IMG/VR virus record: IMGVR_UViG_2884366220_000001
Coordinates: 1 to 64,000 of that record
Source: a virus
Lineage: Duplodnaviria > Caudoviricetes
Reading direction: 5' to 3' (one strand)
DNA length: 64,000 bases
The position numbers and the translations under genes were made by a program. The notes below the pieces were generated by a model that made no database searches, was not told the DNA's origin, and worked only from the letters and a program-made list of their open reading frames with translations. Every line of letters starts with the position of its first letter. Positions within the stretch are counted from its first letter, which is position 1. This document shows, in pieces, positions 27,880 to 47,600 of this stretch.

Positions 27880-27935
27880 ATGGCCATCCAGAATCGACAC
27901 GTTACCGGTACGTGTCGATACGCTGTACATGGGCT

Positions 27936-27986
27936 GTCATCACGCCTGTCACGGCCTGAGCCATAGCGCGCGCAGAATTTCGCGCT
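27936..27986 (+). promoter_or_regulatory. Late promoter motif, copy 4
   Basis: GTCATCACGCCTGTCACG-N21-GAATTTCG-N4-ATG(27987). Confidence 0.8.
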
Positions 27987-29983: not shown

Positions 29984-29985
29984 CC

Positions 29986-30294: not shown

Positions 30295-30296
30295 CC

Positions 30297-32387
30297 ATGC
30301 CTGCAACGCTGCCTGACCCCTACGTATACAGCCCCGACAATTGGCTGGCGGTACCCGATCTGACCACAAACCAGGTCCGCTACTGGCCCATGCCCTGCCA
30401 TAAGGTAACGCACCAGCTGGTGAGCGAGGAACTTGCCAACTACCTGCTGCGCACGGTACCGGGCGCTTTCAATGATCTGCTCGATGAGCTGCCCGATGGC
30501 GTGCGCGACGACGGCGATCGGCAGCCCACCACCCTGAATCTGCTGGCTGGTACCAATAACATAATCAGCCGGTATATCTGCACGGGCGGTTACACCCAGC
30601 CTAAATTCTGGCGCGCGAGTCAGGCGCTGGCCGTGGCTGTCATCAATCCCGCCCTGCTGGCCGATAATGACGGCGGTACCATCTCGCTGGAACGGCTCGA
30701 AGTACTGGGTCTCGATGATCTGCTGATGCTACTCATCAGCCAGGCTAAACCCGCGACAATATTGGCGTTGTGCAGCCGGTTGAGTAGCGCGGGTTGCGGC
30801 TCGCAGCCCGCCATTGAAGTCGCCAGCTACCTGGTAGCTGACCTGCTGGAGCCAATCGTGCCCCCATCCGGGACTACGACGCCCACGCCCACGCCCACCC
30901 CAACGCCCACCCCGACGCCCACTGTGCCCAGTAAGCCGACACTGGTACTGCGTGTAGAGGTCAACAACTGCGATAAGGTAGCGGGCTGGATCATTGACAC
31001 ATCCAATCCGAAAGTGGCCCAGTCGGTCGACATTTTTGTGAATGATAAGCTGGTCGCCACCGTCACGGCCAGCAAACTGCGCGATGACGTAGCCAAGACC
31101 TTTTCAGGCGACGTAAACAGCCTGTACGGCTTTGAGTGGATAAAGCCGGCCAGCCTGCGGGATGGCTCTTCGCATAAGACCCGCGTCTTTGGCCGCGATA
31201 ACGCTGTCGAGGCTGAATACGCCGGGTCGACCATCAGTGGCCCCTGCGGTACGGCGCCCAGTGAACCGACGCCCGCGCCGGTACGTGTGATTCAGTACCG
31301 CATCGATGGGCCATTCTCCATCCCTGAGCAGGGAGGAGATAAGCTGTTCTGGGTGACCGAGCGGCTCAGTTATCCCGATAAGGCCGAGCGCCGACGTACC
31401 GCCGTCAGCAATTTCCGGCTCAAAGAAAACGATGTGCCCTCGCTGGTGCTGACGCCCACCGCCAATTCGGCGGAAGTCATTCTCAACCTGAGCAGTATCG
31501 ACAAGACAGTTCGCAAAACACTGGTCGCTGAATTTCCCGAAGGCGGTTCGGCCGAAATGACGATCGAACTGGTCGACACGAGCTGTCACCGCCCATCGGG
31601 TCAGGATTACAAGCCACTTCTGGTGTGGAATGCCGTGCCAGCCGGGGGCGGCAATGCCCGCACCTTCGATACGCTCGACGATGCCAACAATACGCTCGGC
31701 AAGCATTTCGATGATAGCAGCCCACTGAAGCTCGACGGCTCAACCTTTGCCGCCGAAATGGCCAACTACAATGTGGGTACCGACGTGTACCTGTACTGGT
31801 CACCAGGTGTTGACTCTTGCGCCCGCGTGTCCGACCGAATCTATTATGTGCTCAACGGCGACTCCAGCAACGGCCAGAAACTGGCCATTCAGGTGGTGGC
31901 CGGCAAGATTGCCGCTGTTAAACGCTCTGATTACAGCACGCCTACCGGTGCCCCCCAGCCCCCTAACAGCTCGCTGAGTGCCATTGCCTACGGCTACACC
32001 GGGGTAAATGACCAGTACTCGGGGGATCTGCTGGTGTTCGCCAAAAACGGCACCCAGCCAGCGAACGGTATGGCCGATACCTCAACGGTGCCGACAACCG
32101 GCTTCAGCAACGGCAACCAGACGCTGGACGATAACTCCTCGATGTCGACGATCGACAACTACCTGAACCAAGCCGACGTGGTGCCCCGCTGGGTATCGCT
32201 GCTCCAGGCGGCTAAGCAGGCCGGCTACAGCTACGTAGGCCGGGGTAGTGGTATCGATAACCCCGGCGAAGCTATTCGCTACCGGGTGCGCGGTAACCGG
32301 AGCGAGACCGGCTACAAGGAATACACGTTCATCACGCCCAACTACGACGTCGCGGTTGGCCTCACCCAACTCTATCCCGCCCCATGA
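30297..32387 (+). CDS. Multidomain tail-appendage protein with (PT)n linker and Ig-like domains
   Basis: TPTPTP linker; VAGWIID...VDIFVNDK...RDDV Ig-like stretch. Confidence 0.65.
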   Translation: MPATLPDPYVYSPDNWLAVPDLTTNQVRYWPMPCHKVTHQLVSEELANYLLRTVPGAFNDLLDELPDGVRDDGDRQPTTLNLLAGTNNIISRYICTGGYTQPKFWRASQALAVAVINPALLADNDGGTISLERLEVLGLDDLLMLLISQAKPATILALCSRLSSAGCGSQPAIEVASYLVADLLEPIVPPSGTTTPTPTPTPTPTPTPTVPSKPTLVLRVEVNNCDKVAGWIIDTSNPKVAQSVDIFVNDKLVATVTASKLRDDVAKTFSGDVNSLYGFEWIKPASLRDGSSHKTRVFGRDNAVEAEYAGSTISGPCGTAPSEPTPAPVRVIQYRIDGPFSIPEQGGDKLFWVTERLSYPDKAERRRTAVSNFRLKENDVPSLVLTPTANSAEVILNLSSIDKTVRKTLVAEFPEGGSAEMTIELVDTSCHRPSGQDYKPLLVWNAVPAGGGNARTFDTLDDANNTLGKHFDDSSPLKLDGSTFAAEMANYNVGTDVYLYWSPGVDSCARVSDRIYYVLNGDSSNGQKLAIQVVAGKIAAVKRSDYSTPTGAPQPPNSSLSAIAYGYTGVNDQYSGDLLVFAKNGTQPANGMADTSTVPTTGFSNGNQTLDDNSSMSTIDNYLNQADVVPRWVSLLQAAKQAGYSYVGRGSGIDNPGEAIRYRVRGNRSETGYKEYTFITPNYDVAVGLTQLYPAP
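30879..30923 (+). repeat. (ACNCCN)n coding repeat (Pro-Thr linker)
   Basis: Seen directly. Confidence 0.85.
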
Positions 32388-33586
32388 TCCAGGCAGTCAT
32401 TCAAAATCAGGCCGCCAAAACGATCGGCTATTTCGGTGTCGATGACACCAACACTTGTGGAGATAAAGCGGGCCTGTTTCCCGAAAAGCCCACCCCGGCT
32501 CAACTGGCTAAGGTGAATACCTTACCAGCTGGACAGTACCGCTCGCTGTGCGTCCGATCGGCCAGCAAGATCACCGCGCTCTACGTGGCCCGCAACCCCG
32601 ACGGTGCGCTGTCGTTTTACGCCAGTGGGTCCGGCACTATAACGCTGGTGCTGACGGCGCTGGGGGGCGGAGGCTACAACCAGACCAAGGTGATGACTAC
32701 GGCTGACGGCCCCTACAGCCGCGACGGGCTGTTTACCGGCTCGCTGGTGTACGGTTCGCTGTTTGGTAATACGGCCGACGCCCAGTACCAGCTGCTGGCC
32801 AAAGACGACGCTGGCGGCATTGACGGCTACGTGCTGACGCTGAACGACTCGACGCCGGCGCAGGCCCTGAAAACGGCCTCGTCCAAACTGACGGCGCTCT
32901 ACGTCGCCCGCAACAGCGGAGGGTCGCTGTCATTTTACGTCAGTGGGTCGGGAACGCTCACCCTGACGCTGGCCTGCGTGGATGGCACCTCCACCTACAG
33001 CCAGACCAAAGTGATGACGACTGCCGACGGTCCTTACGGCCGTGACGGGCTGTTTACCGGTACGCTTGCCTATGGCTCCCTGTTTACCAATGTACCCAAT
33101 GCCCGGTTTGGACTAACGGTTCGCGACGATGCAGGCGGTCAGGAACAGTTCAGCTTCAGCACGACCGATACCGGGCCGTTTCAGGTACTGAAAGCCGGAT
33201 CGTCGACGGGTGGTGGCTCGGGTGGTGGCTCGGGTGGTGGCTCGGGTGGTGGCTCGGGTGGGGTGCCCAGCCCGACTATCAAGGGCAAGATTGACCACAT
33301 CAGCCCCTCGCGCCGGCCGGATTTGATGCAGATCGTAGTAACCGCTTATCAGGAAGCTGACGGTTCATGGTGGCTCAAATTCGACGATAGCGCAACAGGT
33401 ATCACCGAGAAATTCTACCGGGGTATTGGCGAAGGCTCTTGGATCACCCTGGCTCAGCTACGGGCACTGCGGGTACCAGCTGGCTACCTGTACGCCATCT
33501 CGTGTATGCAGATGTCGTCGCCCGCTGACGACAGCAAAATCAATGATCAGACGGCGCACTGCGTCCAATTTATTTACACCAGCTAG
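32384..33586 (+). CDS. Tail-region protein with ~105-aa tandem duplication and (GGGS)4 linker
   Basis: SKITALYVARN...DDAGG occurs twice. Confidence 0.7.
   Translation: MIQAVIQNQAAKTIGYFGVDDTNTCGDKAGLFPEKPTPAQLAKVNTLPAGQYRSLCVRSASKITALYVARNPDGALSFYASGSGTITLVLTALGGGGYNQTKVMTTADGPYSRDGLFTGSLVYGSLFGNTADAQYQLLAKDDAGGIDGYVLTLNDSTPAQALKTASSKLTALYVARNSGGSLSFYVSGSGTLTLTLACVDGTSTYSQTKVMTTADGPYGRDGLFTGTLAYGSLFTNVPNARFGLTVRDDAGGQEQFSFSTTDTGPFQVLKAGSSTGGGSGGGSGGGSGGGSGGVPSPTIKGKIDHISPSRRPDLMQIVVTAYQEADGSWWLKFDDSATGITEKFYRGIGEGSWITLAQLRALRVPAGYLYAISCMQMSSPADDSKINDQTAHCVQFIYTS
33209..33256 (+). repeat. Four exact copies of GGTGGTGGCTCG
   Basis: Seen directly. Confidence 0.9.
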
Positions 33587-33588
33587 AC

Positions 33589-35040
33589 ATGGGAGTACCA
33601 CTAATTAAAGACCGAACCCTGCCCCGTCAGCCCGGAAAAGAATACGAAGAGGTGCCCCTGGTGACAGATGGCTCGATGAACCTCAATTTCCGCAACGGGG
33701 AAACCTATTCGCAGGCACCGACCAACGCCTGCGACTTCCACGGCTACATCGACAAGAACATTCACTATATGCTGAATGGGGGCGTCATCACGCCGGCCGG
33801 GATGGCGTACATGCGTACGATGTTTATGAAGGATGCCAACATCCAAGACATCAATCCGGGCAAGCCGTTTAACCAGTTTACAAAGGACGAATGTTACGCA
33901 GTTGCCGAGTTCCTGTGGGCCAATAAAGGGCCATTTGGTATCGTTAGTGGCGAGGCTCAGGAGTCTGGCAGTGACTGGCGTTTCCAAACCGACTACGCTC
34001 CTCAGCAGTGTAAGTGGGTGCTGGAAGGGCTCTCTAAGCTAAAGGAAAAATACGCCCAGTTCATCAACCTCGGCGCGTCGTACGCAGGTCCTACCACGTT
34101 CTGGCCTACCAAGTCGAACCTGGCGGCCGTGAGTGATGCGTGTAGCGACTTCAACAAGCTAAAGCAGTTCCTCACTAGCTACGAATGGGGGTTTGCAAAA
34201 TACGTGTCGATGGATATGCACCTAACCGGTGCCCTGCCGCAGGTGAATTTGTACATGGTTCTCAACAACGGCTGGGACCAGTACTGGAAATCCCGGCTAG
34301 GGCTGCTCATGATGGGGCAGTTCCTGAAGGGCGTTAACCTCGACCCACGCGACCAGGGCGGCTTCGGCTGGTGGCGCTGTGCTGCCGGGATCGACCCGTT
34401 CACTGAACAATACCAGATCGATTTAGGGAATGGTCTGGTAGCAAATACAGCCGACTTTAACATTCAGAACCCGCAGTTGCAGTTTGCCACGGCCGCTATG
34501 GCCATGCAGACGATCCGGCACGTACTTGGGTGGGATAACCCCTACGTGTTTGGGATTGACCGCAACAAGATCGCCCGTCCTGACAACACCGGTCGATATA
34601 GCCTGTCAGGTTCGACAAACGGGCGAACGCTCATCGACAATGGTCGATTCAAACCCGCTCCTCCGCAGAGTGGCGTCGACTACGCATTCCCCAACGTCTA
34701 TTATGGCCCTAACGATTTAGGTGCACTCGCTGCGAAAATGCGGTGTCTGAGTACCGATTTCGTTAACGCTTGGCCCGGCCCTGTGAAGTGGCGTCCTGCC
34801 GGCACATCGACCTGGAAAACACTCGATCACACCTATTACCCGAGCAGCTGCTACAACAAGGAGCCCGACGTAAACATGGCGACCGATGGCGTCAATACAG
34901 CTGGTGGGAAGCGCGTGGTTACCATCTACGGCGCAGGCCGGGGCGGTACGATCGAGATCGACCTGGGCGGCTCGAATAACGTGGCCACGATCACCTATCC
35001 GGGTGAGGTCTATAAGCAATACGAAATCACGCTAACCTAA
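33589..35040 (+). CDS. Hypothetical aromatic-rich protein (possible glycan-active domain)
   Basis: 483-aa ORF in the tail operon; no motif firmly recognised. Confidence 0.6.
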   Translation: MGVPLIKDRTLPRQPGKEYEEVPLVTDGSMNLNFRNGETYSQAPTNACDFHGYIDKNIHYMLNGGVITPAGMAYMRTMFMKDANIQDINPGKPFNQFTKDECYAVAEFLWANKGPFGIVSGEAQESGSDWRFQTDYAPQQCKWVLEGLSKLKEKYAQFINLGASYAGPTTFWPTKSNLAAVSDACSDFNKLKQFLTSYEWGFAKYVSMDMHLTGALPQVNLYMVLNNGWDQYWKSRLGLLMMGQFLKGVNLDPRDQGGFGWWRCAAGIDPFTEQYQIDLGNGLVANTADFNIQNPQLQFATAAMAMQTIRHVLGWDNPYVFGIDRNKIARPDNTGRYSLSGSTNGRTLIDNGRFKPAPPQSGVDYAFPNVYYGPNDLGALAAKMRCLSTDFVNAWPGPVKWRPAGTSTWKTLDHTYYPSSCYNKEPDVNMATDGVNTAGGKRVVTIYGAGRGGTIEIDLGGSNNVATITYPGEVYKQYEITLT

Positions 35041-35045
35041 TCGCC

Positions 35046-35351
35046 ATGCCACTATTTGCGCTCAAACGCGAACACGAAAAAATCAAGCGGGTCGAAGATC
35101 CTGGAAACCCTGAAACGTGGCCTAACGCGCTATACGAAGAGAACACCCGCTTGCTGGCCGACCGCTACTGGTATGCCGAGCAGGTCACGGCCGACAATCC
35201 TGAAACGACCGAAGACGGCACGCCCATCGCCGAAGGCAATTACTGCATGTGGTATCGCTGGTCGGACGGTAGCTACCGCCGAACCGAGTCGGAACGTGAG
35301 TACTTCGAGAAGACCTACTTCGACGTCGACGAGCTACCTGACCAGTCCTGA
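35046..35351 (+). CDS. Hypothetical acidic protein
   Basis: ATG ORF in operon. Confidence 0.6.
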   Translation: MPLFALKREHEKIKRVEDPGNPETWPNALYEENTRLLADRYWYAEQVTADNPETTEDGTPIAEGNYCMWYRWSDGSYRRTESEREYFEKTYFDVDELPDQS

Positions 35352-35386
35352 ACCTTTATTCCATCATTCTTTAACGAGTCAACACC

Positions 35387-36151
35387 GTGGCTACCGAACA
35401 GGATACCCGTAACTTAATTACTTCCGAACTCCCCGATCGCAACGCGGCCGGCTCGACCCGCATCAAAGCAGCCGCCTTGCGAAAGGTGCTGAACTGGATC
35501 GTCGACTACATCAAGAGCTACTCCCCCACGTTCTTCAACGCGCCTAATGGCGACGGGAGCGCCCTTTTTTCGGACAATCAGCCCGGTCTGGGTCTGATGC
35601 GCTTTCTGGGCAACAAGATTATTGGTGCCTCGGACTTTGGGATGATCAACATCAACTTGGCTGGGGATGGCTTCAGCTTCTGGCAGCAGCTGACGGCCAC
35701 TAAAGACAAACTGCTGATGGCCGTGCGTCGGAATGGCGTCGCTATCGGTACCGACAATCCGGAAGAGTTATTGCACGTGGCTGGTCGCATCAAAACGTTT
35801 GGTTTGGTGGCTATCGGCGGGACGCCCACCGCCAGCCTACTCGGTACCGGACTCGGCACAGGGGGGACAGTCAGCATGGGTAGCGGAGCCACTGATCAGG
35901 CCGGTATGTTCATCATTACCACGGGCAGCAATCCGGGCGCGACGCAAATGGCCCGCATCAGCTTTGCCAACAAAGTAGCACGCACACCCACGGCCGTCAT
36001 GATTTCGGGCTGTAGTACATCGTCTGGAAACCATCTCGGAAAGCTGGTTCTCTATGCCGAGTCATCGAGCGCCCTGATACTTACGGCGAGCGATGGGTCG
36101 ATACTGCCCGCCAATTCAACATTGTCCTTCTACTACCAGGTTATCGTATGA
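35387..36151 (+). CDS. Tail fibre-like protein
   Basis: IKAAALRKVL N-terminus, GVAIGTDNPEELLHVAG repeat motif, Gly/Thr-rich tip. Confidence 0.65.
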   Translation: MATEQDTRNLITSELPDRNAAGSTRIKAAALRKVLNWIVDYIKSYSPTFFNAPNGDGSALFSDNQPGLGLMRFLGNKIIGASDFGMININLAGDGFSFWQQLTATKDKLLMAVRRNGVAIGTDNPEELLHVAGRIKTFGLVAIGGTPTASLLGTGLGTGGTVSMGSGATDQAGMFIITTGSNPGATQMARISFANKVARTPTAVMISGCSTSSGNHLGKLVLYAESSSALILTASDGSILPANSTLSFYYQVIV

Positions 36152-36600
36152 AAAATCAGCTTGTTATTCCTATCAGCGACGACCCAATCACGGGACTGCC
36201 GCGCCAGGCTTCACTGGAAGCCTTTATTATCCAGTCCGACCTGAACATGACCATCCGCGCCCGGATCAGTTACCTGACCCCGGATGGTGGGCCGAAGCTA
36301 GCCGCCATTGCGGAAGACGTGAGCCTGTCGCCCTACCAGAAACAGGTTGCCGCCGAACAGTTTGTCGATCGCATTACCAATCGTCAGACGGGCGGCTCGT
36401 TTGTACTGCCGGCGACCGGTCAGATCGTCGACGAGTCGACCGCGATGGCCGTTGCCCAGCGCGATTATTTTCAGGCCATTGACCTGGGTGACCTCAAGGC
36501 GCTGGGGCTAACGATCAACGATCAGACTACGCTGGCCGAACTGATGTATGCCGTACTAGGCATGGAAATCCGTAAGTCCGACGCCCGCAAGGAAATCTAG
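36148..36600 (+). CDS. Hypothetical protein (fibre chaperone candidate)
   Basis: ATGA-coupled to the fibre gene. Confidence 0.55.
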   Translation: MKNQLVIPISDDPITGLPRQASLEAFIIQSDLNMTIRARISYLTPDGGPKLAAIAEDVSLSPYQKQVAAEQFVDRITNRQTGGSFVLPATGQIVDESTAMAVAQRDYFQAIDLGDLKALGLTINDQTTLAELMYAVLGMEIRKSDARKEI

Positions 36601-36608
36601 TGCTCACG

Positions 36609-36666
36609 CGTCATCACGCCCGTCACGAACCGCCCGATCTGGACCTACCAGCTTCGGGCGGTTTTT
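36609..36666 (+). promoter_or_regulatory. Late promoter motif, copy 5, fused to an intrinsic terminator
   Basis: GTCATCACGCCCGTCACG-N21-CAGCTTCG; AACCGCCCGA...TCGGGCGGTT + T run. Confidence 0.8.
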
Positions 36667-36679
36667 TATCTCTAACTCT

Positions 36680-37306
36680 ATGAAGCACCTCATTTTGTGG
36701 GCGGGCCTGCTGCTCTCGCTCAGCTGCTCAGCGCAAACCATTCAGCCCTTCGACATGACCGTGTTCCGGGGCCAGATCAGCGAAAAAACCCTGCTCCTGT
36801 TGCTGGCAGACTCCTCCAGGAGTGTGAGCGCAACGGCCTACTGGGATCGGTTCGGGCGTATGCTGCCAGCTGATCAGCAGCCCATCCTGATTCGCTCCGC
36901 CCGGCCGGGAACCAGCCTGGTCGTTCGGCTGCAAAACACGCTCAATCTGCCGGCATCTGGTGGGTGGATCGAAATTCGTGTCGGTGGCCAGATCCGGGCC
37001 AGCGGCCGGCTGATCGTTACCCAGGTCCGTTCGCCAACGACGGCTTCCATCGACGCCCCCAGTGGTGTCGGCGAGGGTACGGTAAAGTTTTGGCGGCTCA
37101 GCAACGCCGTCAGCGGACAGGAAATCCGCCACGGCTCAAGCAGCCGCTTGGTCAGTGCCCAGTTCTTCCGCGACGATACCGGGCAACTAGATCCGCTAAT
37201 CCGGATCGAGATCATCGACGAGAACCGGATTCGACTCATTGCCCCGCCCGGCGAAACCGTCAATGGCCAGCTCACGACTATCATCATTCAGAAGCTTACC
37301 CAATAA
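36680..37306 (+). CDS. Signal-peptide protein, beta-rich
   Basis: MKHLILWAGLLLSLSCSA|Q. Confidence 0.75.
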   Translation: MKHLILWAGLLLSLSCSAQTIQPFDMTVFRGQISEKTLLLLLADSSRSVSATAYWDRFGRMLPADQQPILIRSARPGTSLVVRLQNTLNLPASGGWIEIRVGGQIRASGRLIVTQVRSPTTASIDAPSGVGEGTVKFWRLSNAVSGQEIRHGSSSRLVSAQFFRDDTGQLDPLIRIEIIDENRIRLIAPPGETVNGQLTTIIIQKLTQ

Positions 37307-37336
37307 TCAATCCGTAACAATTAACCATCCATCTCA

Positions 37337-37927
37337 ATGAAACCATTTCGTGGTTTACTCGCCGGCCTACTGCTGGCAACCGTTTCTCTTTCCGTCCAGG
37401 CGCAGACGCAGGTAGCCAAGCGAGACACGGCCGCTACGACCCAGGCCAATCGACTCCAGTTGGGAGCCGATGACACGCGTATGGGTCAAAAAGGATCTAC
37501 GGGCAACTTCCGGGGCTTCGCTTTCAAAGACGAAGTTGTTGCTGCCCAGGGGTCGGCCGTGCAGACGGTCAATAACAAAACGCCAACGGCGGGCAACATC
37601 AATATTTCTGCCACTGATGTCGGCCTGGGTAACGTCAGTAATACCTCCGACGCTAACAAGCCAGTTTCAACGGCTCAGCAGCAGGCGTTCGATCTGAAGG
37701 CCAATCAGGCCACATCGGTTTACAGTGACGCGGTGGCCAGCTATTCTGCCCTTTCCAGCTACACAGTGCCCAACGGGAAAGCCTACCTGATCACGGTGCG
37801 AAGCGATGAACGCTACAAGAAGAGGGATGGCAGTAACTCGATCAATACGCTGTACTGGAAATCGGTCTCCAGCGACGGCTCGACGACGACTCTGTATAAA
37901 GTCACCTTTATCGACGAGTCGAATTGA
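37337..37927 (+). CDS. Signal-peptide protein with phage tail-fibre repeat
   Basis: MKPFRGLLAGLLLATVSLSVQA|Q; VQTVNNKT and DVGLGNVSNTSDANKPVSTAQQ. Confidence 0.8.
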   Translation: MKPFRGLLAGLLLATVSLSVQAQTQVAKRDTAATTQANRLQLGADDTRMGQKGSTGNFRGFAFKDEVVAAQGSAVQTVNNKTPTAGNINISATDVGLGNVSNTSDANKPVSTAQQQAFDLKANQATSVYSDAVASYSALSSYTVPNGKAYLITVRSDERYKKRDGSNSINTLYWKSVSSDGSTTTLYKVTFIDESN

Positions 37928-40245
37928 TCCGGATGCTGACACTGCTACTCACGCTCGTAGTGAGCGTGAGTAGCTATGGGCAATTAGCGACGAAGGCGCA
38001 GTGGGGTGTGGCCCGGTCGACGGATAGCCTGAACGAAACGCGTGACGGCTTTCTGCTTGGGCCAGGAGCCGGCCGCTACCTGAAAGTGTTGATTGACTCC
38101 AATACGGCCAACTTGGTACGTAAGCAGCCGCTACTGACGACCAGTAGTAATGTCGTGAGTGGCACGCTAACGGCCGGTAAAATCTTTCTCCAGGGAGCTA
38201 CTGCCGCTGAAACCGCTAGAAACAGCATCCTGCCGCTTCCGGGTGGTGGGGTCGAGTTCGGCGGTAATCCACGGCTTTCAGCTGCGGGCATTGGCGCGGG
38301 CGGGAATCTCGACGTGAAGCCGGACGGCAACCTGTATTTCTTCAGCAACGGTAACAGTAGCCGGTCGCTGTTTCTGCACAACGAAGGTATTTCTGTCAAC
38401 CGGAACACCAACACGGCCCGCGCCGGGTTCGACATCGGCTCAGACGTTTGGGTTGATGGTAACCTGAAACTACCTACCGTAGACGGCCGCTGGTTCGGCT
38501 TCGATGGCTTGTCTTCCGGTCAAACCGTCCGGCTTCGTATGGGCGACCCCACCGGGGGACTCGATGTAACATCAGGCGCGGGCATGACGGTAAAGGCTTA
38601 CCACGGCATTATCGTACAGAATCAGGCCGGGGGCGCTGGACCAGCGCTGCGAGTCAATGGCTTGTCGAGCGGTCAGAACCTGTTCGAGTTTTACGACGCA
38701 GCGAGCGCGTTACGGGCGTCGCTGTCGCAGGCGGGTATTTTGTCGTTGGGCGCAGGCGGGGGCGTCCGATTCGCTGACGGCTCGACGCAGACGACAGCAG
38801 CGGGTACGGCCGCGCCGATATCTGTTACGATCGCAGCGAGTGAAACGGCCCTATTGAATGCGATCGCAGCGGCTACCGTTCCGACCGTCGTCAGTTGGAC
38901 CGGCGTCATAACGCAGACGCAAACGATTGTCATAAATAACAAGACTGAACTGTATTTGGACTGCTACGGTAAGGGCGGGCTCAGTCGATCGAATTCGCCC
39001 GATCAGATTTTGGTAAATGGCAATAACAAAAACGTCGGCTTTCGCGGTATCGCCTTTGTGAACACAAATACAACCGGAACCAACGGTGCGCAAATCCGAA
39101 TCAACGAACAAGGGCCGGAAGACGGGATTTTTATTGAAGACAATACCTTTCTGAACGCAGGCACGAACAATAATTCGATTGCGTCGAATGCGTCAGGCGG
39201 GGCGCAGGACCAGTTCATTACGTCGCACAAACGTTTCTACATTCGCCGGAATACATTCGGCGGTTCGGTTGGCAGCGGTACGGGTATTTCGCGCATGGCG
39301 ATCGAATTACTTAATCACTCAGCAGACGGGCCGGGGCCGATTCAATACTGCGAAGAATTTGTAATTGAGGATAACAAAATTTACAAACCGGGTACGGGTA
39401 GCGACGACGGTTTCGGTATTTCGTTGTCGGGTTTGATCCGTAAAAGCCGGATCAAAGGGAATACAGTTATTGACGCCGAACGGTATTCTATCGAAATCGT
39501 TTTGGGGGCGAATATTCTCGTCGAGGATAACACGGTCATCGATATTGACAACTCGTCAGTAGGCATTAGCATTTCTAACGGCTATAAAGCTGAAAACGCA
39601 ATACCGGCAGGCGCAAATCAGAATATAATCGTAAACCGGAACCGGATAAACGTAAAACAACGGGCGATCCTAGCGTACTACGTCAGCAATTCGATATACA
39701 CGCGAAACATCTTCAAAAGTCAGCAGCGTAACGAGTTTATTGGGAATGAAAACGTTTTCGCGAACAATACTATCGACGTTTACAACGACTGGAACGCCTT
39801 GTATTTTGCCCGTTCGAGCCGAAACAAGATCGTCGATAATACAGCGACGACGTACTATCACGGTAACGGCATTTACACGTCGTCAGTTATATTCTTTGAC
39901 GCCGGATCAAACGACAGTTACGTGCGTCTGAACACGCTCACGCGGCCGACGAATTCGTATAACGTTCACATTGAACAGGCCAGCGGAACAAGCAACGACA
40001 CCGGGGCGGGGTTCCAGTCGGCAACCAATACGCTTAACACCTACGCGGAGAAACGACCTAACACCCTGGGGAATGACCAGATACAAGTCGCAACTTACCA
40101 GGATATGATTAACCTGGGCACGGTCACCGTGTCGACTACCGTCTACGTCCTTGCCGACGAGAAAAATAATCCCGGCGCACTGAGTGTGTACACGCTGCTA
40201 CCATCGGGCAAACGCGTTCGGTTTGCCGCCATCGAAGACAATTAA
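37924..40245 (+). CDS. Signal-peptide tailspike-like protein with right-handed beta-helix (depolymerase candidate)
   Basis: ...VVSVSSYG|Q; GVRFADGSTQTTA fibre motif; repeated IEDN/IRRN/IKGN beta-helix rungs. Confidence 0.78.
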   Translation: MIRMLTLLLTLVVSVSSYGQLATKAQWGVARSTDSLNETRDGFLLGPGAGRYLKVLIDSNTANLVRKQPLLTTSSNVVSGTLTAGKIFLQGATAAETARNSILPLPGGGVEFGGNPRLSAAGIGAGGNLDVKPDGNLYFFSNGNSSRSLFLHNEGISVNRNTNTARAGFDIGSDVWVDGNLKLPTVDGRWFGFDGLSSGQTVRLRMGDPTGGLDVTSGAGMTVKAYHGIIVQNQAGGAGPALRVNGLSSGQNLFEFYDAASALRASLSQAGILSLGAGGGVRFADGSTQTTAAGTAAPISVTIAASETALLNAIAAATVPTVVSWTGVITQTQTIVINNKTELYLDCYGKGGLSRSNSPDQILVNGNNKNVGFRGIAFVNTNTTGTNGAQIRINEQGPEDGIFIEDNTFLNAGTNNNSIASNASGGAQDQFITSHKRFYIRRNTFGGSVGSGTGISRMAIELLNHSADGPGPIQYCEEFVIEDNKIYKPGTGSDDGFGISLSGLIRKSRIKGNTVIDAERYSIEIVLGANILVEDNTVIDIDNSSVGISISNGYKAENAIPAGANQNIIVNRNRINVKQRAILAYYVSNSIYTRNIFKSQQRNEFIGNENVFANNTIDVYNDWNALYFARSSRNKIVDNTATTYYHGNGIYTSSVIFFDAGSNDSYVRLNTLTRPTNSYNVHIEQASGTSNDTGAGFQSATNTLNTYAEKRPNTLGNDQIQVATYQDMINLGTVTVSTTVYVLADEKNNPGALSVYTLLPSGKRVRFAAIEDN

Positions 40246-40258
40246 CCGCATAACGTCC

Positions 40259-41449
40259 ATGAAAAAAGCACTAATTATAGCCCTGCTGAGTCTGGCCACC
40301 CTCAGCGCATTTGCTCAGTTCCCCGTCGATCAGGCCCGGCCAGGTCGGGTGTACACATCGATTAAAGACCTGGCCCAATCGGAAGGGCAGGAATATTACC
40401 TCGGTAGCCGGGGGAAAATCGTCGTCACCGGTACGGTGTCGGCCACGTCGACCAGTGAGGTCAGCTATACGTTTACCTCCGGCAACCTGCCCAGCTACTT
40501 CGCGCCGGCCGGCATCGTGGTGCTGCACACGATGGATTACCGGTTCGACACCAAAATCAAAGGGTACTACTACACCCCGTTCGGTAACTCATCGACGTTT
40601 GCGACCTACACCAATACGCAGCCGTTTTTCAGCGCCAACGCCAACGAACGACTGACCCGCCCGGTTAGTCAGTACCTGCTCCCCACCCAGTCGCCGACGG
40701 CCGCCGTGCTGACCGAAGCCGCCATCCCGGTTAGTAATACCGCAACCTTACCAACCATCGGATCGACCCAGTCGCTGACCATTGGCTACGAAACGGGCTG
40801 GTACGGTAACCTGATCTGGGACATGAACATTGGAGCCAGTAAGTGTGTCGACATCTGGGGCGATAGCATCTGGAATGCGGTGGGCCCTACCACCTGGTCG
40901 AATAATTTCGCCTACCTGTTGCGGGATTATTTTACCGACAAGGGCTATAACTACCGGCTCAGAAACCGCAGTGTGTCCGGCTCGACCACGCTCGATCACC
41001 GCAATTTCTGGTACGCGGGCCGAACGCTGGCTGACCCCCCGGCGGTGGTATTTATTCCGCTCGGCACCAACGATCCGGACGCGATGAGTACCAGCGACAA
41101 TATTTTGTACCTGGTCAACAAAGCCCTTACGACCTACACCACGCCGACCAACAAAGTGCGGGTTGTCGTGTGTGGTATCCTGCCCAAACTCAACAGTACC
41201 GCCGAAACCACCGCGAGTAATAAGCGCAGTGCGATTAAATCGGCGCTCGAAGGCCACGCCAAGTATAACTCGCAGGTTTTCTATGTCAACTCCCTGACGA
41301 CCGCCTGGACGGCGACGACGGCCAGTAACTATCTGGCCGATGGTGTTCATCCGGTCGACGCGGCCGAACTGACTGCTTGGGGCTTACTGAAGACCTGGCT
41401 CGATGGCTACAACGTGACCGGCGGCAATACCATTTTTTCGGCCCGTTAA
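40259..41449 (+). CDS. Signal-peptide SGNH/GDSL hydrolase (esterase/deacetylase)
   Basis: MKKALIIALLSLATLSAFA|Q; WGDSI, NRSVSG, LGTND and DGVHP blocks. Confidence 0.85.
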   Translation: MKKALIIALLSLATLSAFAQFPVDQARPGRVYTSIKDLAQSEGQEYYLGSRGKIVVTGTVSATSTSEVSYTFTSGNLPSYFAPAGIVVLHTMDYRFDTKIKGYYYTPFGNSSTFATYTNTQPFFSANANERLTRPVSQYLLPTQSPTAAVLTEAAIPVSNTATLPTIGSTQSLTIGYETGWYGNLIWDMNIGASKCVDIWGDSIWNAVGPTTWSNNFAYLLRDYFTDKGYNYRLRNRSVSGSTTLDHRNFWYAGRTLADPPAVVFIPLGTNDPDAMSTSDNILYLVNKALTTYTTPTNKVRVVVCGILPKLNSTAETTASNKRSAIKSALEGHAKYNSQVFYVNSLTTAWTATTASNYLADGVHPVDAAELTAWGLLKTWLDGYNVTGGNTIFSAR

Positions 41450-41455
41450 AACGCC

Positions 41456-41513
41456 CGTCATCACGCCCGTCACGAACCGCCCGAACTGGATCGACCAGCT
41501 TCGGGCGGTTTTT
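41456..41513 (+). promoter_or_regulatory. Late promoter motif, copy 6, fused to an intrinsic terminator
   Basis: 55 of 58 bases identical to 36609-36666. Confidence 0.8.
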
Positions 41514-41527
41514 ATTTCTGACGACTG

Positions 41528-42022
41528 ATGGAATCCTTTCTCTTGTTGTTTATCGCCCTTGTGCTGGCGCTCCTATTTTTTCCTGCTGGCATTCTGACCA
41601 CGCTGATCCGCTCACTGATTCGCTGGAAACGGGTTTCCTTTTCTGCATACATCGCGCAGGCCGCCCGAAGCCTTGCGCTCAGTATCGACCGGATGGGTAA
41701 CGTCGTTTGCAGTGATCTGCTGGAACTGACAATGACCCGCGATACGGGTAATTACCTGTTCGGAAATAGTGTGGAGACAATCAGCCTAGTGCTTGGTATG
41801 AACAAGCACCTGGGGACGCTTACCCGATTCGGTACCGGCTTAGCCTGGTTGCTCAATCTCATTGACCCCGGCCACGTAGAGCGGGCCGCTGGTATGCCCA
41901 TTATTCCACCACCAGACCCCTCACAGGTGCTGATTCGCGCCTTTCTGAAGCAGTACTGGAAACCCGCGTTGGCTTTTGCGATCGGAGTTTTGACCGTTCA
42001 CCTGATTCTATACATCCTATGA
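41528..42022 (+). CDS. Phage membrane protein
   Basis: N- and C-terminal TM segments; SIDRMGN...ETISLVLG. Confidence 0.7.
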   Translation: MESFLLLFIALVLALLFFPAGILTTLIRSLIRWKRVSFSAYIAQAARSLALSIDRMGNVVCSDLLELTMTRDTGNYLFGNSVETISLVLGMNKHLGTLTRFGTGLAWLLNLIDPGHVERAAGMPIIPPPDPSQVLIRAFLKQYWKPALAFAIGVLTVHLILYIL

Positions 42023-44088
42023 TCGGTATCACCAACGATCAGGGGCTTAGGCTGGAGCTTTTTTCAAACCAGAACCTGGTCACTGAACAGGTTGCCGCCT
42101 GGCTCGTCGACGACGAGTTGCCCGGCGAATTTTCTTACCCCATCGACGCGCCTCTGACGGAGAATAATCAGCGGTTCGTTGCCCACGGCTACCGGCCCGA
42201 TTCGGCATCCCCGCGCCTGATCATGCCGGTAACGGTGTCGTTTGGTGGTATCCTGTACCGTCGGTGCCAGCTGGCCTACAAACTCCAAAATGGGAAATTG
42301 AACGCCTATCTGAAGATCGACAGCGCCGAAGTATATGATAAACTTCGTAAGCTGAGTTTGCAGGAAGCCCTGGCCACGCCGATCCGCATTGGTGATGGTG
42401 TCGTTGGGGCAGTAAACGGTATCGCCACCGTGCTACCGCTCAACGAGCGGCTGACTCAGGTTGCTGCGGCACCGCCCGGCACGTGCGCGTTCGCGGTGTT
42501 CCCCATTCGTAACGAAACATTCTTCGAGGACGACTGGCGAATGAAGGTACCAGGAGCCATTCCTGATCCCCAGCCGTATGTTAACTGGTTCACCAAGACC
42601 GGCAGTAATGGGGTAGGTAATTTCGTGGCCGACTACCAGTTCGGCGACGGGGTAGTACGTGGGTACCCGATTTGTCCTCAGCTATATCTTTGGTGGGTAC
42701 TGGAGCAGCTGATGCTACTCGCTGGCTACCGGATCGAATCGGATTGGCTCGCCCAGGAAGCCATTCAACGATTGTGCATTCTGAACCTGACGGCGCTTCC
42801 GATCATCGAAAACAAAACGCTCGATGAAGCCTTCGGCGGACGACGCTTTATTCCCGGCCAGTGCCTGCCCGAGATGGACGTGTCGGAATTTCTGAAGGCC
42901 ATCAAACAGCGATTTGGTTTGTGCTTCACCTTCAATGCCAATACGCGGATCTGCACCATTGCCCAGTTCGTCGGCGCCGTGGCCCAGGGGCCAGCCGGCA
43001 ACCTGACTTCCTACCAGGCTGGTTCGTACGATACGGCCGAGCCGGACGGCCGTGGTTTTGCCGTAACGGAGTACTTCGACCCCGCCGACGAGCTATACAA
43101 AGATGCCAGGGGCCAGACCATTCAGCCCGACCCAATCATTATAGGCAAGGGGGGACAGCCGATCAGTATGAAAGTGGGCACCTGCCAGTCGATCTATACC
43201 GATTCGACGGTCAGCAACGGAAAGTGGCAGGTACCCACCGTCCGGCAGGCGGGCAACCTGCTCGACCCGGCCTACAGCGCATCGGATCGGTACCTCGATC
43301 AAACCGGGAAGCGTCGTAATAACGTGGGCCTGCGCCTGCTGAGCTACGAAGGAATGCAGCAGGACAGCACCGGGGCCTACTATCCCTTCGCGTCGACGGA
43401 AGTCTGTGAGCTGGCTGGCCGGAATGGCATCTGGCTTAAGGGTCTCCGGCAGTATTACTATTTCCGGGATCAGACGCAGCGGATTACCCAGAAGATGCTG
43501 CTACCGGCACCAGTCCTGTCGACCATGCAGCTGCACCGCAGTTACAGTTTGAGTCTGAACGATAGAATCCGGCGGGCGTATCTGATCACGAAGCTACAGG
43601 CGGAAGCCCCCGGCCCGGAGGGGAAACTCACGGCGCGGCTGGAATGCCAGACGATTCCTTCGGGTATCGATCAGGCGGCCGACGTCGACGAGGCATTCGT
43701 TTATCTGGAGCTGGTCAACGAAACCCAGAAGCAGCTAGCCGGGCCAACCTCATCCGTGATCAACGCCAATTTCTACGATCAGACCAAATTGACCGTCAAG
43801 GTGTGGGCCGATCGGAATAAGACCAGGGCGGCCATTGTCGGCAAGCTACCGGTCAAACTGCGCTTCCTGAAGAGTTGGCCAGTCAAGAAAAACATCACGC
43901 AGCTGGAGGCCGGGCAGGTCCGCACGGTCAACTACCTGGAAACCGTTACGACCTACGACATCGTCGGCTCGCAGATGGTGATCGAGCCGGCGCTAAAAAC
44001 CTACCTGTTTCTGACGGGTGAGAACGTGTGGGAGGAGTTTCAACTAGTGGTTCAGCTTGATCCGGGGGAGGGGTACGGTATACTATGA
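42019..44088 (+). CDS. Tail/baseplate hub-like protein
   Basis: GEFSYPIDAPLT N-terminus and LPEMDVSEFLKAIKQRFG; position. Confidence 0.65.
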   Translation: MIGITNDQGLRLELFSNQNLVTEQVAAWLVDDELPGEFSYPIDAPLTENNQRFVAHGYRPDSASPRLIMPVTVSFGGILYRRCQLAYKLQNGKLNAYLKIDSAEVYDKLRKLSLQEALATPIRIGDGVVGAVNGIATVLPLNERLTQVAAAPPGTCAFAVFPIRNETFFEDDWRMKVPGAIPDPQPYVNWFTKTGSNGVGNFVADYQFGDGVVRGYPICPQLYLWWVLEQLMLLAGYRIESDWLAQEAIQRLCILNLTALPIIENKTLDEAFGGRRFIPGQCLPEMDVSEFLKAIKQRFGLCFTFNANTRICTIAQFVGAVAQGPAGNLTSYQAGSYDTAEPDGRGFAVTEYFDPADELYKDARGQTIQPDPIIIGKGGQPISMKVGTCQSIYTDSTVSNGKWQVPTVRQAGNLLDPAYSASDRYLDQTGKRRNNVGLRLLSYEGMQQDSTGAYYPFASTEVCELAGRNGIWLKGLRQYYYFRDQTQRITQKMLLPAPVLSTMQLHRSYSLSLNDRIRRAYLITKLQAEAPGPEGKLTARLECQTIPSGIDQAADVDEAFVYLELVNETQKQLAGPTSSVINANFYDQTKLTVKVWADRNKTRAAIVGKLPVKLRFLKSWPVKKNITQLEAGQVRTVNYLETVTTYDIVGSQMVIEPALKTYLFLTGENVWEEFQLVVQLDPGEGYGIL

Positions 44089-44570
44089 GTGAGTTAGCCA
44101 CTGCCTACCGGTATCTGGACATCAACCAGAAGATTAACCTCAAAACTGTCGTCAGTAAATGGCTACAGTTTGCACGTGAACGATTCGGAGAGGATCTGGA
44201 GAAGTTCGTTTACAATCGTAAACGGTCGAGTCGGAAGCGCCCCCTGCGCCGTAGTTACAGACTTAAATCAGATTGGAGCACAGGCATGAATATGAGCGGA
44301 AACGACGTCAATTCTGCCTTTCTAAGTTTCCTGCTGTACGGTCGGTTTGTTGACATGGGCGTAGGAAAAGGGACCGACTACGCGACGAGCCAGTACCAGA
44401 AGGTCAGGAAGAACGGCGAACCTCGCAACCGCAGGCCCGCCCGCTGGTATGCCAAGCGAAAGGGCTACGAAACCCACCGATTGCGCGAACTGCTCGTGGA
44501 TCACTACGTGAGCATCCCAATCACCACTATTGAAAATGCGCTGACCGGTAGTGTCAGCATCAGCGTGTAA
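44085..44570 (+). CDS. Basic neck/tail completion-like protein
   Basis: YGRFVDMGVGKG motif; precedes tape measure. Confidence 0.55.
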   Translation: MSELATAYRYLDINQKINLKTVVSKWLQFARERFGEDLEKFVYNRKRSSRKRPLRRSYRLKSDWSTGMNMSGNDVNSAFLSFLLYGRFVDMGVGKGTDYATSQYQKVRKNGEPRNRRPARWYAKRKGYETHRLRELLVDHYVSIPITTIENALTGSVSISV

Positions 44571-44637
44571 TCGACGGCACGCACCACCACAGCACTAGTT
44601 ACAGGGCCTCACCGCAACGCTTAAACCAAGCAGTACG

Positions 44638-47600
44638 GTGGCTAGAACCCAGAATGAACGCGCCATTATTGACCTCGTCATTAATGGCCAACAGGCAAAA
44701 ACCAGCCTGAAAGAAGTGAGCCTGAGCATCACCAAGATGCGCTCGGAGCTGAACAAAATGCATGAAGCGGACGACCCCGCTTTATACGCTGCCAAAGTCC
44801 GGGAAATCAATAAAATGATTGCGGCCCAGCGGGAGATGACCGCCCGCATCAATGACACCAGCACTGCCTGGGGCCGCTTCAAGAAAGAAATGGCGACCGT
44901 GGCCACTGGTGTCGTCGGTGGCAACGTGATCACGTTCATGCTGCAATCGCTGGTCAATCTGATTCCGCAGACAATCGACCGGACGATGAAGCTGAAGGAT
45001 TCCTTCGCCGACATCGAAAAGGCAACTGGTCTGAGCAGTGAAGGGGTGAAGCGACTCAATAAGGAGTTGAAGGACATCGACACCCGCACGACCAACCAGG
45101 ATCTGCGCGACATCGCCGTGGCGGCCGGTCAGTTAGGGGTTGCCAACGATCAGCTGGTTTCGTTCGTGAAAAACGCCGATATGGCCGTGGTCGCGTTAGG
45201 CGATGAATTTTCGGGTGGTGTCGAGCAGGTAGCCAAGGAGTTAGGCGGTATTGCCAAGCTGTATAAGGAAACGCAGGCGATGGATACCGGCGAAGCCCTC
45301 AGCCGCATTGGTTCGGGGTTGAACGAACTGGGAGCCGCCGGATCAGCGACCGCCCCAGTGGTCGCGGAGTTCGTGCAGCGCATGGGTCAGCTGGGCAATC
45401 TGGCACCGAGCCTGGCACAAACGGCCGGTTACGGTGCCGCCCTTCAGGAACTGGGAATGACGGCCGAGATTGCCGCCAGCGGACTCGGTAAAATCCTGAT
45501 GACCGGCGCGACCAAATCAGATCTGTTTGCTCAGCATCTGGGAAAAACGAAGGAAGAAGTCGAAGCCCTCATCAATACGAATCCGGATCAATTCCTGAAG
45601 GCGTTGGCCCTGTCGTTTCAGGGACTTTCGCAGACGCAGGTCGTGCAGCGCATGAAGGAACTGAAGCTGGAGTCTGACGAGTCGATCAAGGTGATGTCGT
45701 TGCTGGCCAACCAGACGGATTTCGTAACCAAGAAGCAGGAGATCATGGCGTCGGCTTTCGCCGAGAATACCAGTCTGGCGAAAGAATTTGAGAAGAAAAA
45801 CTACGATCTGGCGAAGGAGCTGAAGAACCTGACCGAGTGGTTTAATGGCCTGTTTACCAGTGAGGGGTTGCAAAACTTTCTGGCAGAAGCTGTTCACAAT
45901 ACCCTCGAATTCACGAAGTCACTATCGACGGCGAAACGCTGGTTTGGCGAAAACAGCGTAGCCCTGTATGCATTGGCGACAGCGGCCGTAGCTTACAACG
46001 GGGCAACACTGGCCGCCGTTGCCGCCACGGCCCTCGACACCTTGCACCAGGGCTACCGGAAAGTGGCCTACGAATTAGGCTTCCGTTGGCTGGTATTGCA
46101 ATCGTCGGCTAGTACCGCTTACGCTACGGTGACGGGTTTACTGACCGGTCAGATCACGCTTCAGACGGCCGCTGTTACGTTGGCCCGCACGGCCTGGGCT
46201 GCATTCAACGCCGTTATGCTGGCCAACCCACTTGGGGTTGTCATTGCAGGTCTGGCAGCCGCAGCCTACGCAATCAAAACGTTGTCGGATAATACCGAAG
46301 CCGCCCTGCGCATCGAGCGGGAAAAAATCAACCTGACCCGCGACCTGGCTAAGTTCCACGAACAGACCAACAAGGTCGTAGCGAAGTACAACGAACTGCT
46401 GGCGGAGTATCCGAAACTCAGTCAGGAAGAGCGGGCCGAAATGGTTAAGAATCTGGCCATGAAGCGGCTGGAACTGGAAAGTCAGCTGACGCAGCTGAAG
46501 GCCCGCGAACGGCACATGGAGATGCTTTCGGCCGAGCCGACACTGTGGCAATATCTGTGGGCTACAATCAAGAACGGGGGCAATGGCGCGATGATCGGTA
46601 ATGCACTGGTCAAGCAGGCGGCCGACAACATGAAGGCAGTTCGTCAGCAGTTTGCCGGTGGTATCGAGCAGTTGCAGGGTGACATCAAAAAGGTCGACGA
46701 CATCTTTCTCAAGATGGGATCGTACAACAAACCAGCCGGTGCCACTGGCCTGCGCACAATCGAAGATGATACGGAGAAAAAACAGAAGAAAGACAAGGCC
46801 GTATCGGACGCAAAACAGGATGCTGACGATCTGGAGCGGATGCTGTCGGATGCCCGGCGCGATGCCCTGAAATCGGAAGAAACCGATTACGAAAAATCGG
46901 TCATGGCCTTCGCTGCCAAGTACACGAAGATGTATGAGTTAGCGAAGGGTAACCAGGCGAAGATTCAGGAGATCGAACGCTTGTCGCGGGTCGAAATGGC
47001 TGCGATCGACAAAGCCCGGCAGGAAAAGGAAGCGGCCGAGATGCAGAAGAAACTCGACAAATCGAACCGCGAAGCCTTCGGTAACACGATGGACGTTGCC
47101 GACCAGCGCCACAGCGACGCTATCAGCGGTATCGAGCGTACACAGGCGATGTCGCCCAGCGCCATCGGTGACGCCGAGGTGCACATGCAGAAGTTGCAGG
47201 CCGATCAGCAGTACCTGACCCAGAAGCTGCTACTCGAGGAAACGTTCGCCCAGCACTCGGCCGACACCCAGCGTCAGCTGACCGAGAACTGGAACGAGCA
47301 GGTCAAGCTGCGGGCCGACACCGAGCACGGCTACGCCGAGCAGATGAAGCAGGCCGAATGGGCTTTGCAGGACGCTAAACGGGCCGCCATGACCCAGGGG
47401 CTGGATGTGCTGAAAACGTTTCTGGGAAAAGGTACGCTGGCCTACAAAGCCGCCATCGTTGCCCAGAAAGCCTACGCGATCGCGCAGCTGATCGTCGACA
47501 ACCAGCGCGAAGTGGCCCAGATCTATGCCAACCCGACCTGGTCACTGATGCCGGACGGGGGGCTGAGTCTGAAGACGGCAGCCGCCACCGCATCCCGGAT

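Follow-up and report, generated by a model that had tools for sequence, protein, structure and literature searches.

Tailed-phage particles are taken to be built wholly in the cytoplasm, and a signal peptide encoded in a prophage is usually read as the mark of a moron or of a host gene. The subject here is a set of four consecutive genes, sp1 to sp4 (the cassette, positions 36680-41449), in the tail region of a temperate, siphovirus-like prophage of a Spirosoma host, whose products appear to combine fibre-, depolymerase- and esterase-like bodies with Sec signals. The window is the whole 64,000-nt stretch that was analysed, the beginning of IMG/VR record IMGVR_UViG_2884366220_000001, equivalent to G000:C1:3560361-3624360 in a host genome of 6.05 Mb and three contigs. 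Phage tailspikes and fibre depolymerases (P22, HK620, CBA120 TSP3, APK14 gp49) resemble the cassette proteins in their beta-helix and SGNH bodies, in the joining of a modular N-terminus to a variable body and in their place in a hypervariable receptor-binding region; G7C gp63.1 is itself an SGNH spike. Known tailspikes, however, carry no signal peptide and are assembled on particles in the cytoplasm, whereas all four open reading frames (ORFs) of the cassette, and 35 of 102 ORFs in the corresponding slot of related prophages, open with a predicted signal peptidase I (SPI) signal followed by Gln (SP/Q).

Other described systems share part of this arrangement. Sec-exported and signal-arrest-release (SAR) endolysins, such as fOg44 Lys44 and P1 Lyz, are late phage proteins that reach the periplasm through host Sec before lysis; unlike the cassette products, they are murein lysis enzymes encoded by single genes inside a lysis cassette. 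The lambdoid morons lom and bor have their own promoter, are expressed in the lysogen and encode outer-membrane proteins or lipoproteins. Like the cassette genes, they are signal-bearing genes among the late tail genes of a temperate siphovirus, bounded by terminators or, in the cassette, by terminator-like hairpins; the cassette differs in encoding putative fibres and enzymes and in having, as its sole upstream element, a motif that recurs before the phage's structural genes. Exposure of Gln by SPI cleavage is the Bacteroidota Q-rule, reportedly defined by Bochtler et al. and in a follow-up paper. Porphyromonas gingivalis prophages, in the accessible part of Matrishin et al. 2023 (PMC10367356), carry five genes with Q-rule signals, of unassigned function and read as modifiers of the host outer membrane; these prophages and the one in the window are thus both temperate Bacteroidota phages with Q-rule SPI proteins. 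The front half of the P. gingivalis phage is laid out as in the window (primase, protease, capsid, terminase, portal), and the terminases are 26% identical. In the one P. gingivalis record scanned, the extra signal or lipoprotein ORFs are 56-63 aa long and lie outside the tail module, whereas those of the window are large and lie in the slot.

The four co-oriented ORFs of the cassette open with Sec/SPI-type signals whose best cleavage site exposes Gln:

36680-37306, + strand: sp1, 208 aa; predicted SPI signal CSA/Q, then two Ig-like beta-sandwich domains
37337-37927, + strand: sp2, 196 aa; predicted SPI signal VQA/Q, conserved mature N-terminus, one tail-fibre repeat (GLGNVSNTSDANKPVS), small C-terminal module
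37924-40245, + strand: sp3, 773 aa (770 from ATG 37933); predicted SPI signal SYG/Q, N-terminal region of about 280 aa in common with its relative P0006, right-handed beta-helix, sp2-like small C-terminal module
40256-41449, + strand: sp4, 397 aa; predicted SPI signal AFA/Q, N-terminal half without recognised fold, C-terminal SGNH/GDSL esterase

The N-termini read MKHLILWAGLLLSLSCSA/Q in sp1, MKPFRGLLAGLLLATVSLSVQA/Q in sp2, M(IRM)LTLLLTLVVSVSSYG/Q in sp3 and MKKALIIALLSLATLSAFA/Q in sp4. In sp3 the TTG start at 37924 overlaps the sp2 stop, and the public gene call uses the ATG three codons on; the longest sp4 ORF begins at 40184, and its signal-bearing ATG lies at 40256. Signal prediction rests on conservation and on home-made scoring: a hydrophobicity scan covered 58 hand-listed ORFs of the window, and an SPI/SPII (signal peptidase II) heuristic was applied to all plus-strand ORFs of at least 100 aa. 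With the heuristic the cassette ORFs score 3.9-5.0, and each of the four has a positive n-region, an uncharged hydrophobic h-region, small residues at -3/-1 and Gln at +1. Both scans also flag membrane proteins of the lysis cassette (24561, 24865, 25471), the transmembrane protein at 41528 and the lipoprotein at 48178. An earlier note on this DNA, made from the letters alone, had described four successive genes with Gln-exposing SPI signals downstream of tail genes that lack them, and no C-terminal domain of the type IX secretion system (T9SS). All three descriptions hold: ORFs and N-termini are as it gave them, with heuristic and conservation in agreement; neither scan flagged any tail ORF between 27929/27987 and 36600; and a T9SS domain was found neither in an NCBIfam scan of nine proteins (E<=0.01) nor in Pfam scans of four plus seven.

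Relatives retain these N-termini. In the sp2 family A22/Q23 is invariant in all seven sequences, which are 43-94% identical. Three sp1 homologues are 81-83% identical to it in the mature part and only 50% in the signal, where the hydrophobic core and the Gln at +1 are kept. P0006 matches sp3 over the first ~300 residues, the signal ending in SYG/Q included, and then continues into a different C-terminal body. The host itself obeys the Q-rule: when scored without any bonus for Gln, 197 of 612 predicted signals (from 2858 ORFs of at least 300 aa) have Gln at +1, making it the most frequent residue there. The cassette signals thus look like genuine, conserved Q-rule SPI signals, and their conservation among relatives argues that they are functional. 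Only the sp1 signal bears a Cys (LSLS/C), which raised the possibility of a lipoprotein; the Cys is gone in all three close homologues while A/G followed by Gln is kept, which argues against a lipobox. Isoforms of sp1 and sp2 from internal starts were likewise rejected, as the Met residues past the signals are not conserved in homologues.

The bodies behind these signals are those of phage appendages and polysaccharide-active enzymes. The earlier note had seen a phage fibre repeat and an SGNH esterase, which lie in sp2 and sp4, and both identifications stand. The sp2 repeat matches 16 PHROG families, of which seven have a tail-protein annotation (phrog_35419, tail fiber, 1.9e-11), and 219 phage records by tblastn, so that it is widespread in virion fibre proteins. 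In sp4, PF13472 matches at 3.7e-11 (44.3 bits against a cut-off of 32.9) and the GDS, SGS, GTND and DGVH blocks are intact; sp4 is a predicted SGNH esterase with intact catalytic blocks. The note had also seen a fibre motif with a beta-helix, which lie in sp3; the helix is confirmed, whereas the motif is not confirmed as a known fibre motif. The AlphaFold2 (AF2) model shows a right-handed beta-helix at residues 296-687, with predicted local distance difference test (pLDDT) values mostly of 60-94 and below 50 in the N-terminal 295 residues. Foldseek returns 17 PDB matches at E<=0.001, in which AlgE6, chondroitinase B (PL6) and RbmB come ahead of the tailspikes CBA120 TSP3, APK14 and HK620. The motif, GVRFADGSTQTTA, is conserved in the sp3 relatives P0005 and P0006, and a 51-aa query around it retrieved no phage record at E<=1. 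The sp3 helix is 52-63% identical to signal-less proteins; single-protein scans of genome, viral and metagenome contigs gave no close relatives of sp3 and P0006. Eight residues past the cleavage site, all seven sp2 relatives carry a triplet D-[ST]-[AILVT] (37424-37432 in the window, sp2 residues 30-32), which is also present in sp3 (38023-38031, residues 34-36) and in P0006; this triplet is the Bacteroidota O-glycosylation motif.

The AF2 model of sp1 (pLDDT 88.9) consists of the signal helix and two beta-sandwich domains, for which the structural matches in PDB are generic Ig folds. The first Ig-like domain is an N-terminal module that is elsewhere fused to collagen-like and other long bodies. 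A library of 1.84 billion proteins yielded 86 representatives of it at E<=0.001, 120-1304 aa long, nearly all of them matching at their very N-terminus and some with collagen repeats after the domain. By the heuristic, 51 of the 86 are SP/Q, 15 have another residue at +1 and 20 have no signal; judged by eye, roughly half of these 20 have a signal that was missed or truncated, and about ten truly have none. Against PDB sequences the family profile found nothing below E 0.68, and Pfam on 42 members gave only Collagen (two members) and scattered single matches. The domain can be superposed on a phage protein with the annotation 'BppU N-terminal domain-containing' (BFVD; template-modelling score 0.70 by target, root-mean-square deviation 2.5 A, rank 34), and like BppU anchors it occurs at the N-terminus of collagen-containing fibres. 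It differs from them in being a generic beta-sandwich, with a signal in about three quarters of its family, and none of the 42 members scanned matched a BppU family in Pfam. A BppU-type anchor is thus a lead from the structural model.

The cassette lies in a hypervariable slot, whose surroundings in the window are as follows:

27987-29983, + strand: conserved tail-region gene (g27987), about 650 aa; left limit of the variable slot
29986-30294, + strand: 102-aa ORF, corresponding over its first ~75 residues to the conserved N-terminus of signal-less fibre-like proteins (630-1150 aa) of relatives
41528-42022, + strand: membrane protein (g41528), 164 aa, with hydrophobic N- and C-terminal segments
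42019-44088, + strand: conserved 689-aa protein (g42019), hub or tail-tip candidate; right limit of the slot and family marker
44638-48093, + strand: tape measure, 1151 aa (phrog_25337, 2.9e-76; 61% identity in provirus G001)

Provirus G001 from IMG/VR (65 kb, 87% complete) keeps the gene order of the window, with proteins 37-71% identical, except at 30297-42022, and it is this single break that places the cassette in a hypervariable slot. To the left of the slot lie the ~650-aa gene and then the signal-less fibre-like protein with its conserved N-terminus; to the right come the 689-aa protein, one of 161 aa and the tape measure, in this order. Of 401 genomes from the host's family, 34 contain a homologue of the 689-aa marker, and 13 of the 51 genera are represented, the named ones being Spirosoma, Fibrisoma, Larkinella, Fibrella and Fibrivirga. 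At 20 places, a stretch of at most 16 kb before the marker was surveyed by greedy longest-ORF calling and the same home-made heuristic. At 16 of the 20 loci the slot holds at least one SP/Q ORF of at least 150 aa (one to six per locus, 159-1552 aa); the others are G308a (the same as G001), G045a, G045b and G039. Besides the 35 SP/Q ORFs, five of the 102 slot ORFs have a signal with another residue at +1; in several of these the cleavage site looks wrongly placed. Further upstream, in the conserved part, signals were called in 7 of 96 ORFs, several being by eye homologues of the spanin-like ORF 24865. Since the relatives are kin, these counts describe one lineage and not independent events.

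Within the slot, signals and bodies occur in varying combinations. All-against-all BLAST of 156 slot proteins shows N-terminal modules after the signal that are common to different bodies, and Pfam finds SGNH domains among the slot proteins of relatives as well. The same body can occur with and without a signal: the signal-less 786-aa protein of G308a aligns at 37.5% identity, across 757 columns, with residues 200-914 of a signal-bearing 914-aa protein in G029. G001, which has no signal-bearing slot genes, retains a 28-codon relic (MKKLLILWLVSVSALAQTPNR..., L001 7302-7388, G001 52224-52310) whose stop overlaps the marker-gene ATG and of whose first 22 residues 20 match a 254-aa protein of G308b. 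Genome G212, which has no match to the marker, encodes in a prophage-like region (L071, G212:C1:6350558-6354736) an SP/Q homologue of sp4 (28% identity) adjoining a 110-aa SP/Q protein, a g41528 homologue and lysis-like genes; the C-terminal module of the 110-aa protein is that of sp2, sp3 and G308b_13997. This context without the marker gene indicates that the trait is not confined to one prophage family. Signal-bearing slot genes are a lineage trait, more general than the four genes of the earlier note.

The regulatory setting of the cassette is defined by a direct repeat of about 70 nt on either side and by a 19-nt motif, YGTCATCACGCCYGTCACG, within it:

36601-36679, + strand: left copy of the direct repeat, with motif at 36609-36627, hairpin at 36627-36664 and U-run
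41450-41527, + strand: right copy of the direct repeat, with motif at 41456-41474, hairpin at about 41474-41511 and U-run
8765-8783, 9347-9365, 21806-21824, 27935-27953, 36609-36627 and 41456-41474, + strand: copies of the motif

The left hairpin folds at -29.3 kcal/mol (z -4.87) and the right one at -31.0 kcal/mol (z -4.31). The six motif copies, all on the plus strand, compare with 0.06 expected in the window, and the rest of the 6.05-Mb genome contains none at up to one mismatch. Four of them lie exactly 33 nt before an ATG, namely those of the 8817 ORF, the prohead protease, the portal block (21858) and g27987; the last ORF is longest from 27929, and its true start is placed at 27987 from the motif copy. 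The ATGs of sp1 and g41528 lie about 52-54 nt past the motif end, so that the cassette and the block downstream (transmembrane protein, hub-like gene, tape measure) each have their own motif copy and a longer, hairpin-bearing leader. G001 has five near-identical copies at homologous places (18997, 19869, 21015, 34005, 40380), with 33-34 nt to the ATG in the three measured, in a background of proteins about 50% identical. From its positions, the motif is a candidate promoter or regulator site of the structural (late) genes.

It does not match the sigma-70 or the Bacteroidota consensus, and the Bacteroidota -33/-7 consensus has no match in the window. Scans of 26000-45000 for sigma-70 promoters and terminators gave 15 against 9.3 and 23 against 17.7 expected from shuffling, close to chance, and the terminator scan missed both bracketing hairpins because their loops exceed its limit. 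In the 16-kb loci of other relatives, a script that mishandled ORFs at the locus start found no repeated motif before signal-bearing genes; in G093 and G177 only, the same search found lineage-specific k-mers common to the regions upstream of the portal block and of the g27929 homologue. Direct repeats in the G029 locus all lie within coding sequence. The signal-bearing genes of other relatives are not in a repeat-bracketed unit and instead abut or overlap the preceding genes: the gap to the upstream ORF is -11 to +79 nt for 34 of the 35 SP/Q slot ORFs and 343 nt for one. The motif shared by virion gene blocks and cassette argues for late co-regulation, and the leaders suggest late, possibly attenuated or antitermination-dependent expression. 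The 'late operon' of the earlier note is therefore upheld as co-regulation with the virion genes, which the tight packing with tail genes in relatives also favours, and not as a plain continuation of the upstream tail operon, since the cassette is a separate unit between two terminator-like hairpins.

What would such proteins do? The reading preferred here, to which we give an even chance, is that the cassette encodes an exported accessory set of fibre, depolymerase and esterase, made late and acting outside the cell after lysis. On this reading, which draws on sequence and models, the set would serve recognition and depolymerisation of the host surface and be switched on with the virion genes, a late timing that we infer from the shared motif. 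Each product would be made as a Sec precursor with a Q-rule SPI site. While heads and tails are built in the cytoplasm, the two-Ig-domain protein, the short fibre, the beta-helix polysaccharide lyase or tailspike-like protein and the SGNH esterase would be translocated and take up their fold in the periplasm, where their N-terminus would probably be pyroglutamate; they would thus probably exit the cell interior ahead of the virus particles. For a glutaminyl cyclase, the host shows only a partial match to Glu_cyclase_2 (29.5 bits, profile positions 31-124 of 249). With neither a T9SS domain nor a conserved lipobox, the proteins would stay in the periplasm until holin, endolysin and spanin merge the compartments and open the cell. 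They may then act on host surface polysaccharide during progeny spread, either as free enzymes or attached to the tail tip by their N-terminal modules. Their bodies appear fibre-, depolymerase- and esterase-like and sit in a receptor-binding slot; the modular design of anchor plus body and the signal-less siblings fit receptor-binding proteins and suggest that the N-terminal module binds a phage part and not the envelope.

Several points weigh against this reading. To our knowledge, no tailed phage has Sec-exported tail appendages. A search of the openly accessible literature found no published tail fibres or spikes with Sec signals, and none is described in the accessible parts of PMC6199706, PMC5723332 and PMC10367356. 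The periplasm gives no access to capsule or slime before lysis, which leaves the benefit of export without an explanation. The phage already owns a signal-less fibre-like protein with a conserved N-terminus, and the variation in signal-bearing genes from none to six per locus indicates that particles can be assembled without them. In structure, sp3 comes closest to polysaccharide epimerases and lyases of bacteria, with the tailspikes ranking behind. Two possible gains from export, disulfide bonds and O-glycosylation, found no support in 44 signal-bearing slot proteins compared with 79 signal-less ones: Cys is not enriched (0.65 vs 0.59 per 100 aa), and neither is the O-glycosylation motif D[ST][AILVMT] (observed/expected 0.77 vs 0.81). 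Could the exported proteins nevertheless be virion parts? Fibres and spikes that are Sec-exported, trimmed by SPI, capped by pyroglutamate and folded in the periplasm might dock through their N-terminal Ig-like modules on cytoplasmic tails, and only once the holin lesion has merged the compartments; such two-compartment assembly seems rather unlikely.

Other explanations dispense with a role in recognition. Late envelope enzymes that act in the periplasm as helpers of egress, by de-O-acetylating peptidoglycan or cutting polysaccharide in transit, would never bind a receptor or work outside the cell. Export without an onward secretion signal would place the proteins where such helpers act; sp4 is by sequence an intact SGNH esterase, sp3 is closest in fold to bacterial enzymes that modify polysaccharides, and the Sec-exported and SAR endolysins set a precedent. 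The phage has, however, a separate lysis cassette (24561-26432, endolysin 2.3e-61), sp1, sp2 and many proteins of relatives are non-enzymatic fibre, collagen or Ig proteins, and the same bodies recur without signals in sibling prophages. Extreme mosaic variability fits the diversity of surface glycans, not conserved envelope polymers, and egress helpers are on balance unlikely. Captured host genes for polysaccharide use (auxiliary metabolic genes), with incidental fibre-like motifs and no part in infection, are very improbable. Periplasmic SPI enzymes are typical of glycan use in Bacteroidota, and the acetylxylan esterase profile of NCBIfam matches sp4 weakly (E 0.0017; 16.7 bits, cut-off 700). 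None of the four proteins has a paralogue elsewhere in the 6.05-Mb host genome, though, sp4-like genes occur in only 5 of the 401 family genomes, in prophage context wherever examined, and the fibre repeat is that of virion proteins in 219 phage records.

Moron-like cargo for lysogenic conversion or superinfection exclusion would be produced during lysogeny and would block related phages by changing or masking the surface polysaccharide or receptor. The cassette is a discrete unit between terminator-like hairpins, its presence and content vary among relatives, and signal-bearing genes in tail regions, as lom and bor in lambda, are classical morons. In the accessible part of PMC10367356, the Q-rule genes of the P. 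gingivalis prophages, distantly related to this one by the terminase, are read in this way. Yet the 13 nt between hairpin and ATG hold no sigma-70-like or Bacteroidota-type promoter, and the only element upstream is the motif that also precedes the blocks of protease, portal and tail genes. In relatives such genes directly adjoin tail genes or overlap with them; known exclusion proteins do not resemble bodies that reach 1552 aa and contain collagen and fibre repeats; and in the scanned P. gingivalis record the signal or lipoprotein ORFs outside the lysis and capsid genes are small and lie near the integrase end. Cargo of this kind is accordingly judged improbable, and the exported accessory set acting after lysis remains the preferred reading.

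The rest of the prophage, laid out on one strand, is as follows:

about 1 to about 49,000, + strand: prophage
2102: primase
9399: S49 prohead protease (match 1e-49)
10980: capsid candidate
15275: terminase-like ORF, 39% identity to an annotated phage large terminase
22130: portal-like ORF; the first ORF of the portal block is at 21858
24561-26432: lysis cassette, including the endolysin
48178-48849: lipoprotein (ITS/C cleavage), after the tape measure; last prophage gene

The order of the tail region (22130-48849) is unusual: portal and adaptor, lysis cassette, tail and fibre genes, hub-like gene and, last, the tape measure. Compared with the P. gingivalis phage whose front half is similar, this order is approximately mirrored, and no major tail protein was identified in the region. 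In protein-atlas clusters the 689-aa protein falls mostly among viral members, and the families named there, all below 0.9, are leads only; tblastn of this protein and of sp3 against 50,697 phage records gave no match, and thus no cultured relative. The window's fibre-like N-terminus (29986-30294) is a gene apart from the 696-aa ORF at 30297-32387, which begins 2 nt after it in another frame, with a stop three codons upstream; frame and stop indicate a clean split and not a simple frameshift. Residues 219-336 of this 696-aa body resemble a six-fold repeated domain of the host (C1:3096853-3100161). The membrane-protein family of g41528 has members beside signal-bearing slot genes in the window, in G320 (L041 15618-15995) and in G212 (L071 777-1169), three different prophage contexts, and may be functionally tied to these genes.

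In the lysis cassette, homologues of the spanin-like ORF 24865-25458 in relatives (for example L049 4831-5379, L050 3204-3743 and L052 2362-2865) bear cleavable-looking SP/Q signals, whereas the window copy looks like a signal anchor. The place past the tape measure, held here by the lipoprotein at 48178, is a typical site of a superinfection-exclusion or conversion gene; in G001 the position is taken by an unrelated 212-aa SP/Q protein (L001 13582-14220). G001 also contains, between early and structural genes (L003 12521-15174), a 132-bp tandem repeat of about 20 copies with 82% matches, which is not a CRISPR array since the entire unit repeats.

In practice, the finding bears on the annotation of tail regions in Bacteroidota prophages and on the prediction of host range from receptor-binding genes, and it offers candidate glycan-active enzymes that would be naturally competent for secretion. 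A Q-rule N-terminus has been suggested to stabilise extracytoplasmic proteins, in the accessible part of PMC10653852. This phage lineage appears to put Sec signals on the proteins of its receptor-binding and depolymerase slot, in the window under a control element shared with capsid and tail genes. If the proteins are free enzymes, their export would be a testable adaptation, perhaps for extracellular stability through the Q-rule N-terminus. If they are virion parts, they would reveal a new assembly route, in which a siphovirus lineage of the Spirosomataceae would routinely complete its virions at or after lysis.

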